Sequence record: NC_073063.1
Reading direction: 5' to 3' (one strand)
DNA: 43,945 nt
Origin: Escherichia phage vB_EcoS_PNS1
Shown piece by piece: positions 9,756 to 32,194 of this stretch (the first letter of the stretch is position 1; every line of letters begins with the position of its first letter). Both the position numbers and the translations under genes were made by a program. The notes under the pieces were generated by a model. That model was not told the origin of the DNA. It was given only the letters and a program-made list of their open reading frames with translations, and did no database searches.

Positions 9756-9998
9756 TTAATAATCAATGACGCAGTTTGAAGGCGAACCAATCCTTCGGTG
9801 TTCGTGGCTAATCTCCTGGCACCACTGACCCGTATAAGGTAGCTTTTCGGTATCGTAAACCAAAGACCCGTCTTCATGTCGCTCAATAGGCTGAGGTATT
9901 ACACCCGAATTTGGAACGCCTGTGTTTACGCCATTGCCACATGCTGTCATCAGAAGGCACGCCGCGGGTATTATCAGATTTTTGATTAAAGTTTTCAT
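9756..9998 (-). CDS. small lipoprotein, candidate Cor/Llp-like superinfection exclusion protein
   Basis: Internal ATG at 9998 with GGAG RBS gives 80 aa starting MKTLIKNLIIPAACLLMTAC (signal peptide plus lipobox-like Cys); sits between J and tail fiber genes. Confidence 0.55.
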   Translation of the reverse strand: MKTLIKNLIIPAACLLMTACGNGVNTGVPNSGVIPQPIERHEDGSLVYDTEKLPYTGQWCQEISHEHRRIGSPSNCVIDY

Positions 9999-10078
9999 GG
10001 TATAATCTCCGGTATTGGGTTGAGTTTTAGTATTACACCGCTCAATCAAGAATGCAACCAATTTAAGAGGATTTAGCT

Positions 10079-12778: not shown

Positions 12779-12800
12779 TGCAACCAACCTATTGGTTGCA
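12779..12800. promoter_or_regulatory. palindromic operator-like site TGCAACCAA-N4-TTGGTTGCA
   Basis: Inverted repeat with 9-bp arms, upstream of the minus-strand gene starting at 12726. Confidence 0.4.
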
Positions 12801-13259
12801 AGTATATTTTGCAACGTTTATTGCGTAAATTTTCGGGACCAGATCGCCGCACGCCAGACGAATTGCCGCGATGTTCTTCTCGCAATCTTCAATGATGACC
12901 AGTTCCGACACGTCAGCATAGCAGACCATTTTGAACACGGCGCACGCTTTAAACTCTGGCGGCGGGGTGTCGTCCAGCATGTGGCGCATAAACAACCGCC
13001 CTGTCGGGAATACTTCCAGTTGCTCGGCGGTGGTGTCCCAACATTCTAGCTGCCGGTTTGTCAGATACGCGATCTCGAAGCCTTGCTCTTTGTACATGCG
13101 CAACAGCGGCAGCATATCCATGTTCAGGTCTTCGCGGACGTGCGCCTTGTGCCACTTCGCCCAAAAGGTGGATTTAGTTTTTATCCCCGGCACCAGGTCG
13201 GCGCGCGCATCGCTTGATCCATTAATAACGCCATCCAGGTCACAAATCAGTAATTTCAT
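12789..13259 (-). CDS. HAD-superfamily phosphatase / 5-prime nucleotidase-like
   Basis: N-terminal ICDLDGVI matches HAD motif I (DxDG); GAGGA RBS; translationally coupled to upstream gene. Confidence 0.7.
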   Translation of the reverse strand: MKLLICDLDGVINGSSDARADLVPGIKTKSTFWAKWHKAHVREDLNMDMLPLLRMYKEQGFEIAYLTNRQLECWDTTAEQLEVFPTGRLFMRHMLDDTPPPEFKACAVFKMVCYADVSELVIIEDCEKNIAAIRLACGDLVPKIYAINVAKYTCNQ

Positions 13260-27894: not shown

Positions 27895-27923
27895 TTGCAT
27901 CCGCCCTGACACACTGCTATATT
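27895..27923 (+). promoter_or_regulatory. candidate promoter for the small-gene block
   Basis: TTGCAT, 17-bp spacer, TATATT; overlaps two ATTGGTTGCA motifs. Confidence 0.4.
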
Positions 27924-30690: not shown

Positions 30691-30717
30691 AAGCCCGGTT
30701 AATTCCGGGCTTTTTAT
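30691..30717 (+). terminator. rho-independent terminator after lysis genes
   Basis: Stem aagcccgg/ccgggctt with loop ttaatt followed by tttttatt. Confidence 0.6.
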
Positions 30718-30779
30718 TGCTTGACTTGCAACCAACATAGACGCCATACTGCGACAAATCAACGAGAGGAGTAATCAAG

Positions 30780-30860
30780 ATGGCACGTAAAGATATTTGG
30801 GTATTAGCGATCTGGACCACCGCGGCTTTTATCGGCATGGTTATTTGCGAATTGAGATAG
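30780..30860 (+). CDS. candidate 26-aa hydrophobic peptide
   Basis: ATG 30780 with GAGAGGA RBS; MARKDIWVLAIWTTAAFIGMVICELR; TTGACT -35-like element at 30721. Confidence 0.25.
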   Translation: MARKDIWVLAIWTTAAFIGMVICELR

Positions 30861-30921
30861 CCCGCCGCCATACGGACCGTGGTATATTGTCCCCGGTCCA
30901 CTAATCAGGAATTAATTAAAT

Positions 30922-32064
30922 ATGCACCCGCAAACTAAAATTACCGATGAGCAATTGATCGCAGAAATTCAGGCAGGGACTACGGTTAAAGAGATTGCGA
31001 AGAAGTACGGCATTGCACTTCGAAATGTCTACATGCGCAAAGCCCGCCTATCAAAAAAGGGGATTGGTCATGGCAATGACGCCGTGATCCGTAAGCGCGT
31101 TGCCGATGGCTTTGGGGTTAAGCGCGTATCGGCCCTGGTGCGCGGCAATGGCGAAGAGGTCATGTCGTGGGTCATCACTGAGCAGGACAAGGAGCGCCAA
31201 CTCGAAGCAATGCGCGCTGTTGTCGAGGGTATGAACAGCGAAATCACACCGGCAGCGCCAGTAAAAGCCCCGCCAGTACCGATCCAGGCGCTCGACTTGC
31301 TCAACCTGTACACCGTGTCAGACTTCCACCTGGGCATGTTGGCATGGGGCGAGGAGACTGGCGAAGACTGGGATATGGCGATTGCCGAAGACCTGTTCTA
31401 CCGCTGGTTTGTCGAAGCCTTCGCACGCGCCCCGGACGCAGGCACTGCCGTAATTAATATCCTCGGTGATATGGCCCACTTTGATAGCCTCGATGCTGTC
31501 ACTCCGGCAAGTGGTCACATACTGGACGCCGACACCCGCTACCAGAAACTGGTCCGATACATGATTCGCATGGTGCGCAACGTCGTCGAACTGGCGCTGC
31601 AAAAACACCACAAAGTCAAACTGCTAATCGTCCAGGGAAATCATGACGAGTCGGGTATGATTTGGCTGGCTGAGATGTTCAATACTCTGTACGAGAACGA
31701 GCCGCGCGTCGATGTAGATACGTCCCCGGACGTCTACAAAATGGTGCAGCACGGTAAGACCACGCTATTCTTCCACCACGGGCACAAAGCGCGATTCGAT
31801 GCTATCGAGCAGGTTATGATCGCTAAATTCAGACAGGAGTTCGGGTCGAGCGAATACAGCTACGCGCACGTAGGCCATTTGCACCACCAGAAGATTGTCG
31901 AGTCTCGCAACATGATTGTTGAGCAGCACCGGACGCTCGCAGCGAAAGACGCCTACGCCAGTCGTGGCGGTTGGATGTCCGGTCGCAGCGCAAACGTCAT
32001 CACCTATAGCGCCAACTACGGCGAAGTAGCGCGCTTAACCATTAGCCCGGAAATGTTGAAGTAA
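30922..32064 (+). CDS. HTH-domain protein fused to calcineurin-like metallophosphoesterase
   Basis: 380 aa; N-terminal HTH (TVKEIAKKYGIALRNVYMRKAR); motifs DFH, GDMAHFD, GNHDE, HHGH. Confidence 0.7.
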   Translation: MHPQTKITDEQLIAEIQAGTTVKEIAKKYGIALRNVYMRKARLSKKGIGHGNDAVIRKRVADGFGVKRVSALVRGNGEEVMSWVITEQDKERQLEAMRAVVEGMNSEITPAAPVKAPPVPIQALDLLNLYTVSDFHLGMLAWGEETGEDWDMAIAEDLFYRWFVEAFARAPDAGTAVINILGDMAHFDSLDAVTPASGHILDADTRYQKLVRYMIRMVRNVVELALQKHHKVKLLIVQGNHDESGMIWLAEMFNTLYENEPRVDVDTSPDVYKMVQHGKTTLFFHHGHKARFDAIEQVMIAKFRQEFGSSEYSYAHVGHLHHQKIVESRNMIVEQHRTLAAKDAYASRGGWMSGRSANVITYSANYGEVARLTISPEMLK

Positions 32065-32194
32065 CGGCAACCCGTAAGCCTCCCAGCCTGCCGATTTGGT
32101 GGGCTTTTTTGTGCCTGTTATAATCCCCATTAGATGGCAGGGCCGTCTCCTATGTTGCCGATGGTCGGCGCATATGAACAAAAGGGCTTATATC

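Follow-up and report, generated by a model that had tools for sequence, protein, structure and literature searches.

A helix-turn-helix metallophosphoesterase of Escherichia phage PNS1 and its family as candidate stand-alone Mre11-like DNA nucleases

Identity of the gp40 gene and its family

The stretch of DNA analyzed here (the window; 43,945 nt, NC_073063.1) is the genome of a Dhillonvirus, Escherichia phage vB_EcoS_PNS1. Between its lysis genes and its terminase genes lies an open reading frame (ORF) at 30922..32064 (+ strand) that starts with ATG, encodes 380 aa and is preceded, 11 nt ahead of the start codon, by a Shine-Dalgarno-like AGGA read from the sequence (30907..30910, + strand). 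Its product is 100% identical to PNS1 gp40 (P9608_gp40), which carries the database label 'hypothetical protein'. As described below, gp40 certainly has a phosphoesterase fold, best fits the Mre11/SbcD/DP1 branch of that superfamily, and is a candidate DNA nuclease.

Residues 5-380 of gp40 match positions 2-390 of the 390-position hidden Markov model profile of PHROG 704 ('DNA repair exonuclease') with an E-value of 1.1e-161; this family also includes T1 gp16 (ST16) and proteins of Vibrio, Rhodobacter and Campylobacter phages. T1 gp16 is a 'DNA repair exonuclease' in RefSeq as well, and the labels across the family, which is annotated in far more than 1,000 phage genomes, are inconsistent, including 'DNA polymerase small subunit', 'transcriptional regulator', 'oxidoreductase' and 'hypothetical'. 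The family name is a homology-based label, and a full-text literature search found no experimental characterization of PHROG 704. As an object, gp40 is not new: both the gene and its family already have database entries, and RefSeq gives T1 gp16 an annotation. A search of gp40 against the NCBIfam profiles returned no meaningful match.

The approximately 8 kb around the gp40 gene are 90-94% identical to many Dhillonvirus genomes, e.g., SECphi4, Sponge and welsh. Two database records deserve mention. The record of 'Acinetobacter phage NJ01' (OQ221563.1) is 92.7% identical over 8 kb to PNS1, an E. coli Dhillonvirus, and for this reason its host label looks doubtful. Record PQ843332.1 (88,607 bp) matches in three places, and its assembly looks as if a ~44-kb genome had been concatenated or duplicated.

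Of 50,697 phage records searched with tblastn, 2,059 contain homologues, mostly phages of Escherichia, Klebsiella, Salmonella and Vibrio; in 1,680 of these, coverage of the protein is 80% or more. When 1.84 billion cluster representatives were searched exhaustively, 4,674 clusters matched at E ≤1e-3 and 1,132 at E ≤1e-30. The conservation counts given below refer to 141 of the best representatives, which are 31-48% identical to gp40 and biased toward full-length matches.

Domain architecture and catalytic motifs of gp40

An AlphaFold2 model of gp40, built from 96 aligned relatives that two homologue searches had supplied (mean predicted local distance difference test, pLDDT, 86.5; predicted template modeling score, pTM, 0.75), has three parts: a helix-turn-helix (HTH), a beta-hairpin with a helix, and an alpha/beta phosphoesterase core. 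The HTH, which the sequence-only reading had placed at the N-terminus, is borne out by three model helices (aa 9-17, 22-29 and 33-44; pLDDT 92-95) that together span aa 9-44 (30946..31053, + strand). Its Pfam matches are weak and sub-threshold (GerE 0.017, HTH_28 0.029, and also HTH_7), as is the match of the family profile to the GerE structure in the PDB (E 0.03); precomputed Pfam matches to HTH_1, HTH_8, Sigma70_r4_2 and HTH_30 are recorded for several relatives. The second part consists of a conserved two-stranded beta-hairpin (aa 64-88) and a helix (aa 90-105) in the AlphaFold2 model (31111..31236, + strand), with near-invariant residues S70, G77 and W83, the latter two present in 131 of the 141 representatives each. 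The catalytic core occupies aa 121-380 (31282..32061, + strand), and its nearest relatives are Mre11, SbcD and DP1.

The canonical motif set of the superfamily (DxH, GD, GNH[DE], H and GxH), which provides the ligands of the binuclear metal center, is complete in gp40. Motif I, D134-F-H136, contributes metal ligands and extends to DFHLG (31321..31329, + strand; D and H invariant, G138 in 137/141). Motif II is G182-D-M-A-H186-F-D188, of the GDxxH form (31465..31485, + strand; D183 invariant, H186 in 137/141), motif III is G239-N-H-D-E243 (31636..31650, + strand; N240 and H241 invariant), and motif IV is H285-H286-G-H288 (31774..31785, + strand; H286 invariant). These four had been recognized from the sequence alone as calcineurin-like; to them we add a fifth, G318-H319-L-H321 (31873..31884, + strand; G318 and H321 invariant, H319 in 133/141). 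Thus, D134, H136, D183, N240, H241, H286 and H321 are present in all 141 representatives. The model shows the alternating strands and helices of the superfamily alpha/beta fold. The Pfam scores of gp40 fall just below the gathering cut-offs of the Metallophos and Metallophos_2 models (PF00149/PF12850; 21.2 vs 21.5 bits and 23.3 vs 27), which is a limit of model sensitivity overridden by the motifs and the fold; the phosphoesterase fold of gp40 is certain. Profile searches did not place gp40 in any structural or packaging family devoid of the metal ligands, which are invariant or nearly so.

The fold search was headed by Staphylococcus aureus SbcD and Thermotoga maritima Mre11 (14.7 each) and by the PolD DP1 proofreading exonuclease (14.3). 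Lower scores were obtained for 5'-nucleotidases (≤9.7), a Pseudomonas putida 'nuclease MPE' (9.0) and Ser/Thr phosphatases (≤8.6); a protein-phosphatase identity was rejected on this structural distance. Foldseek gave a similarly mixed top group at ~12% identity, with Rv0805 at E 5e-8. PDB searches with the single protein or with full-length profiles returned only spurious repeat-protein or weak HTH matches. With a profile of the catalytic domain only, Mre11/SbcD were the only metallophosphoesterases matched (E 0.02-0.4); motifs I and II fell in the main stretch of that alignment and motifs III and V in separate weak stretches. Motif I of gp40 aligned to SDWHLG and motif II to GDLLH of T. maritima Mre11, so that the Mre11-type motif forms (DxHLG and GDxxH) are present in gp40 together with the nuclease-domain fold. 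Additionally, an independent annotator recorded an HHpred probability of 99.6% to DP1 for the Kagunavirus orthologue. On this evidence, the Mre11/SbcD/DP1 branch is the best fit, by a modest margin.

The small-molecule metallophosphoesterases score nearly as high in the fold search (LpxH and MJ0936 13.3; Rv0805 and GpdQ 12.0), and this bears on a different explanation, in which gp40 would be a phosphodiesterase or phosphatase acting on nucleotides (dNTPs or dNMPs, i.e., deoxynucleoside tri- or monophosphates, 2',3'-cyclic or 3'-phosphate ends, or immune signaling nucleotides) with the HTH serving regulation. Bifunctional enzyme-repressors with a regulatory DNA-binding module do exist, as exemplified by BirA and NadR, and among the genomic neighbors of the family described below are a haloacid dehalogenase (HAD) phosphatase, a dNMP kinase and a MazG-like pyrophosphohydrolase, all of which act on nucleotides. 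Nevertheless, the sequence-profile search of the PDB yielded only Mre11/SbcD, the DFHLG and GDxxH forms fit that branch, and 5'-nucleotidases and protein phosphatases are clearly more distant in fold. Moreover, gp40 matched none of the PADLOC defence and anti-defence models, and no operator-like inverted repeat was found where one was sought 5' of the gp40 gene. We therefore consider a nucleotide-directed enzyme improbable. Of the subfamilies that the sequence-only reading had listed, the Mre11/SbcD-type nucleases fit best; the degradation of a signaling nucleotide, also raised there, is less likely given the family-wide DNA-binding module and the nuclease-like fold.

Only ~60 residues remain in gp40 after motif V; therefore, it has no Mre11-type capping domain. 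Taken together, gp40 is fairly probably a Rad50-independent, metal-dependent DNA nuclease of the Mre11/SbcD/DP1 type, tethered by its HTH and hairpin, with DNA as the presumed substrate.

Conservation, partners and dispensability

The fusion of the HTH to the phosphoesterase, whose conservation the sequence-only reading had proposed to check, is a family-wide trait: the HTH region is covered in 138 of the 141 representatives and the hairpin region in all of them, and at least 109 residues precede motif I in 141/141. More distant members, for example a 317-aa homologue from a Campylobacter phage, are without the HTH, retain the hairpin and still belong to PHROG 704. Among close Dhillonviruses, the gene is under purifying selection (ratio of nonsynonymous to synonymous changes, pN/pS, 0.02-0.06 overall), with the N-terminal and the catalytic parts both constrained.

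A Rad50/SbcC-like ATPase was found neither when the larger ORFs of the window without an assignment were scanned against PHROG, nor in the complete annotation of a relative with 90% identity, nor among the recurrent neighbors of the gene.

The Rogunavirus phiJLA23 (NC_047740.1), a viable isolate of the T1 family, retains only a 110-aa HTH-hairpin remnant (locus L092, 2489-2821), which is labeled 'DNA repair exonuclease', and the catalytic domain was found nowhere else in its genome. Because this phage is viable without the catalytic domain, the enzymatic function is accessory.

Fragment-only ORFs also occur elsewhere: in the BFVD database, Salmonella phage 36, Klebsiella phage KpV79 and phage Jk06 have ORFs of 112, 153 and 258 aa, respectively, and Roseobacter phage RDJL Phi 1 has two, of 309 and 117 aa. 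In T1 and in a Vibrio phage, HNH endonuclease genes are located directly 3' of the phosphoesterase gene (L008, 42028-42510; L005, 6010-6519). Near this gene, frameshifts or the movement of homing endonucleases may be frequent.

Transcription unit of the gp40 gene

A hairpin followed by a U-run at 30691..30712 (+ strand), identified by pattern scan and RNA folding, is a predicted intrinsic terminator closing the upstream lysis unit (-16.4 kcal/mol, z -5.1; none of 200 shuffles was equally stable). To compare the upstream regions, we aligned the 280 nt 5' of the gene from the window and ten Dhillonvirus-like sequences. Most variants have a similar hairpin ahead of the gene despite differing surrounding sequence, and the region is an indel hot spot, in which a promoter-like site and a hydrophobic ORF of 26 aa are present in some variants and in others the terminator nearly abuts the gene. 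A predicted extended -10 promoter element, TGGTATATT, is located at 30880..30888 (+ strand), ~35 nt 5' of the start codon, and its core, GTG(G/A)TATATTG, is kept in the window and in 10/10 of the Dhillonvirus-like sequences, even where the sequence upstream is unrelated. Tested as a possible family-wide feature, the extended -10 was found only in Dhillonvirus. On the other side of the gene, 21 nt after the stop codon, the pattern scan identified a terminator-like hairpin with U6 (32085..32105, + strand), of -12.3 kcal/mol and a z of only -1.6, i.e., weaker support than for the upstream hairpin. It is followed by a perfect extended -10, TGTTATAAT (32116-32124, + strand), the predicted terminase promoter ahead of the gene of the small terminase subunit (TerS).

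Sites of the form TGNTATAWT occur four times in the window, always on the + strand and in intergenic positions (9998-10006, 27915-27923, 30880-30888 and 32116-32124), where they precede the tail-fibre unit, a unit of small ORFs and lysis genes, the gp40 gene and the terminase operon, respectively. Their total is not significant (4 observed vs 1.8 expected); their placement suggests a promoter class shared in Dhillonviruses. Since the same class precedes lysis, structural and terminase units, the timing of gp40 expression is not inferable from it. From the predicted promoter and terminators we infer that the gp40 gene forms a monocistronic cassette, which, having its own promoter and flanking terminators, would be insulated from the terminase operon.

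In the stretch separating the lysis cassette from the gp40 gene, we also observed a promoter-like site, TTGACT-18-CATACT (30721-30750), and a strong Shine-Dalgarno sequence, GAGAGGAG, with the 26-aa hydrophobic ORF MARKDIWVLAIWTTAAFIGMVICELR (30780-30860). In the 11 aligned Dhillonvirus sequences this ORF is conserved in six, altered in one and absent from four, and it is unannotated in Sponge and welsh. Phage Sponge has an extra 64-aa ORF (L001, 7457-7651) between the phosphoesterase gene and TerS, a gap of 306 nt vs 110 nt in the window, where this ORF is not present (32065-32173). Given this 3' insertion and the variable 5' region, both flanks of the gene are indel hot spots in genomes that are otherwise 90-94% identical.

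Genomic position in related phages

The position between lysis genes and terminase is specific to Dhillonvirus. In T1, an annotated terminator and the HNH gene follow gp16, which precedes the lysis genes by ~2 kb and is distant from the terminase; in Webervirus, the gene is likewise not adjacent to the terminase. The orthologues of Jerseyvirus and Kagunavirus, such as AG11 gp22 and fPoEco01 PE1_022, are 73-76% identical to gp40 and are encoded on the opposite strand, in a two-to-four-gene island in the tail operon. This island, located between the tail tube and the tail chaperone/tape-measure genes (AG11, L009 3597-5346; fPoEco01, L010 3627-5542), carries its own terminator and sigma-70-like promoter.

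These positions bear on the roles suggested by the sequence-only reading from the neighborhood of the gene, namely, a nuclease associated with packaging or a regulator of late genes tied to the adjacent terminase. The adjacency itself is real in Dhillonvirus, where the gene adjoins TerS and the large terminase subunit (TerL), and it is absent from T1, Webervirus and the Jersey/Kaguna phages. In favor of such roles, TerL or TerS recurs within six genes in 4-5 of 38 lineages in the neighbor survey described below, the promoter class equals that of the terminase operon, and HTHs of this general type also occur in small terminases and in sigma region 4. However, a terminator-like hairpin and a separate promoter stand between the gp40 gene and TerS, TerL has its own RNaseH-like nuclease domain, and the invariant catalytic residues speak against a purely regulatory protein, as does, for either role, the viability of a phage that has lost the catalytic domain. 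Both readings were rejected on genomic context, and a function of this kind is highly improbable.

The arrangement in the Jersey/Kaguna phages is moron-like; in fPoEco01, the orthologue adjoins an Imm-type superinfection-immunity gene. In another explanation, gp40 would be a competition or counter-defence nuclease, carried on a moron-like cassette, that is directed against superinfecting phages, plasmids or host defence loci by cutting their DNA and is unconnected with nucleotide salvage. Consistent with this are the self-contained transcription unit with variable flanks, the different genomic positions between phage groups despite 75% identity, the dispensability of the gene, and the report of a mycobacteriophage enzyme that acts in counter-defence by destroying host DNA (PMC12287305). 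On the other hand, the gene is persistent and not sporadic: a pangenome study of the Drexlerviridae found a module of exonuclease, holin, endolysin and spanin genes in 508 of 522 genomes (PMC13164509), and such stability, together with strong purifying selection, would be unusual for arms-race cargo. The published escaper and trigger studies that we examined (the Sorek screen with SECphi4, Metis, PUA-Cal-HAD, Druantia, retron and daunorubicin) do not implicate the gp40 gene. Such a role thus seems decidedly improbable, slightly more so than that of a nucleotide-directed enzyme.

In more distant phages, the gene adjoins lysis genes (Rhodobacter and Vibrio phages) or a DNA ligase gene (a Campylobacter myovirus). 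In a prophage of Microbulbifer sp. (CP174300.1; L093, 7369-9595), the HTH-phosphoesterase gene lies between NinG and a dGTP/dATP diphosphohydrolase, and lysis genes follow, then Terminase_6N, a DUF4055 portal and a Mu-F head module, the same Pfam families as in the window. We take the NinG-adjacent slot to be the place of NinH and of NinI, the lambda phosphatase, in the nin region of lambda.

For a broader view, we surveyed the neighbors in 80 IMG/VR loci as well as in reference phages. ORFs were called crudely, BLAST was used for clustering, and the families recurring within six genes were counted in the resulting 38 lineages (85% identity). Endolysin genes recurred in eight lineages, a PHROG-415 'polynucleotide kinase' at position +1 in seven, and PHROG-107 exonuclease, MazG-like dNTP pyrophosphohydrolase and TerL in five each; HNH endonuclease, TerS and endonuclease VII followed with four lineages each, and dNMP kinase and RecE-like exonuclease with three each. 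With the caution due to small counts, the common thread is a module boundary with genes of DNA and nucleotide metabolism rather than of packaging. In Drexlerviridae that have no SH3 gene in between, the genes found most often after that of the exonuclease are those of a 'polynucleotide kinase' and a dNMP kinase (PMC13164509).

PHROG 415 is the commonest +1 neighbor of the phosphoesterase gene in other lineages. Its representative in the relatives has the HAD motif DxDGT, and its match to the T4 Pnk profile falls in the C-terminal, phosphatase part, for which reason the 'kinase' label of these ~160-aa proteins is probably wrong. The PHROG 415 protein of the window (12789-13259, - strand) starts with MKLLICDLDGV, while its relatives have DLDGT (L043; L004, 4476-4964).

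Some of these neighbors fit the main rival to a role in host-DNA degradation, namely, that gp40 processes ends and branches for recombination-dependent replication and concatemer maturation, as a stand-alone Mre11/SbcD acting on phage DNA ends, hairpins and stalled intermediates. Nearest to gp40 in fold are nucleases of double-strand-break repair and a proofreading exonuclease; endonuclease VII, PHROG-107 exonuclease, RecE-like exonuclease and NinG are found nearby, as is the ligase in the Campylobacter phage; and the family is present in a temperate, lambdoid-type prophage, in which wholesale destruction of host DNA would be less expected. Nevertheless, gp40 has neither a Rad50/SbcC partner nor a capping domain, and the loss of the catalytic domain is tolerated in phiJLA23. 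A Gp2.5-like annealing protein, a PD-(D/E)XK exonuclease and a Holliday-junction resolvase already have genes of their own in the window, none of them adjacent to the gp40 gene, and the commonest +1 and +2 neighbors are nucleotide-salvage enzymes, not recombinases. We regard end and branch processing as unlikely, albeit clearly less so than the other alternatives.

Comparison with characterized systems

The members of PHROG 704 share with gp40 the HTH/hairpin/phosphoesterase layout and the invariant motifs, and nothing essential differs; within the family, Dhillonvirus is set apart only by the lysis-terminase position and the extended -10 promoter. Mre11 and SbcD have the same nuclease-domain fold, whereas gp40 is without a capping domain and its genome without a Rad50/SbcC partner. 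Identity to Mre11, SbcD and DP1 is only 12-18%, and gp40 has the N-terminal HTH and beta-hairpin module instead; relative to PolD DP1, it is without the oligonucleotide/oligosaccharide-binding (OB) fold. NinI, the Ser/Thr protein phosphatase of the lambda nin region, belongs to the same calcineurin-like superfamily as gp40.

Two phage proteins with published functions are of particular relevance. T5 A1 (PHROG 1745) is described as having an N-terminal DNA-binding domain of ~60 aa and a C-terminal predicted metallophosphatase resembling nucleases of double-strand-break repair and proofreading, and in vivo it is both necessary and sufficient for the breakdown of host DNA. This is the same architecture as that of gp40, where it is taken from the model, and Pfam HTH domains are present in some A1 relatives; moreover, T5 and PNS1 are both virulent siphophages with relatives that degrade host DNA. 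In contrast, A1 is a pre-early, essential protein of 556 aa needed for second-step DNA transfer, whereas PHROG 704 proteins are of ~380 aa and dispensable in at least one phage. We rejected homology between the two: BLASTP gave E ≥0.16, A1 matches only PHROG 1745, and hhalign matched the HTH only, with a probability of 21%. T5 A1 is thus an architectural analogue of PHROG 704 and a functional precedent, not a relative.

The metallophosphoesterase Gp48 of mycobacteriophage A10ZJ24 is early and toxic, has DNase activity in vitro and degrades host genomic DNA in vivo (PMC12287305). Gp48 and Bxb1 gp47 (Cluster A, PHROG 221) are, like gp40, phage metallophosphoesterases with five motifs, but they have ~255 aa and no HTH, with motif I from residue 10. 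Homology was again rejected, given the different PHROG and an hhalign probability of 6% that reflects a motif match at the superfamily level only. Gp48 is, therefore, a functional precedent and not a relative of PHROG 704.

A possible role in host DNA breakdown

The explanation that we favor, tentatively and with somewhat less than even confidence as a whole, is that gp40 is an HTH-tethered, stand-alone and accessory nuclease for the breakdown of host or other non-phage DNA. In this explanation, gp40 would be a catalytically competent binuclear metallophosphoesterase of the Mre11/SbcD/DP1 branch that would act alone, with neither a Rad50/SbcC ATPase nor a capping domain, and would be kept on DNA through the module of HTH and beta-hairpin at its N-terminus. 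It would be expressed from its own monocistronic unit as an accessory function outside the packaging machine and would cut the host chromosome or other non-phage DNA to fragments or nucleotides, which the neighboring salvage enzymes would recycle.

The biological part of this proposal, the degradation of host or other non-phage DNA to feed nucleotide salvage, is possible rather than probable, and we propose it because of an open question in T1, the salvage-enzyme neighbors, the dispensability of the gene and the two precedents, T5 A1 and Gp48. According to a re-annotation in 2024 of phage TLS, a relative of T1, T1 and TLS degrade the host genome and reuse its nucleotides, and the responsible gene product has not been identified (PMC11447400). 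Roberts and Drexler (1981), as cited there, isolated T1 mutants defective in host-chromosome degradation; our search of the literature on T1 'gene 2.5' and on the mapping of host degradation found nothing. That the PHROG 704 proteins, including T1 gp16 and PNS1 gp40, are the host-chromosome-degrading nucleases of T1-like and related siphophages is a narrower proposal, which we put forward as somewhat doubtful. The modest interest of gp40 lies in this link, since it makes an old question directly testable: with two experimental precedents, PHROG 704 is a concrete and cheaply testable candidate for the T1-type host-degradation gene.

Our analysis narrows the inconsistent database labels of the family to a nuclease that is Mre11-like, stands alone, is tethered by its HTH and has no part in packaging. 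If the narrower proposal is true, PHROG 704 would constitute a widespread class of Mre11-type DNases that act independently of Rad50, are directed by a fused HTH and converge functionally with T5 A1, and whose activity would set the nucleotide supply, the frequency of generalized transduction and the sensitivity to defences that sense host-DNA breakdown (e.g., through N6-methyldeoxyadenosine monophosphate, m6dAMP). Its confirmation would in these respects be relevant to a very common group of coliphages and to the phages used in Klebsiella and Salmonella therapy.

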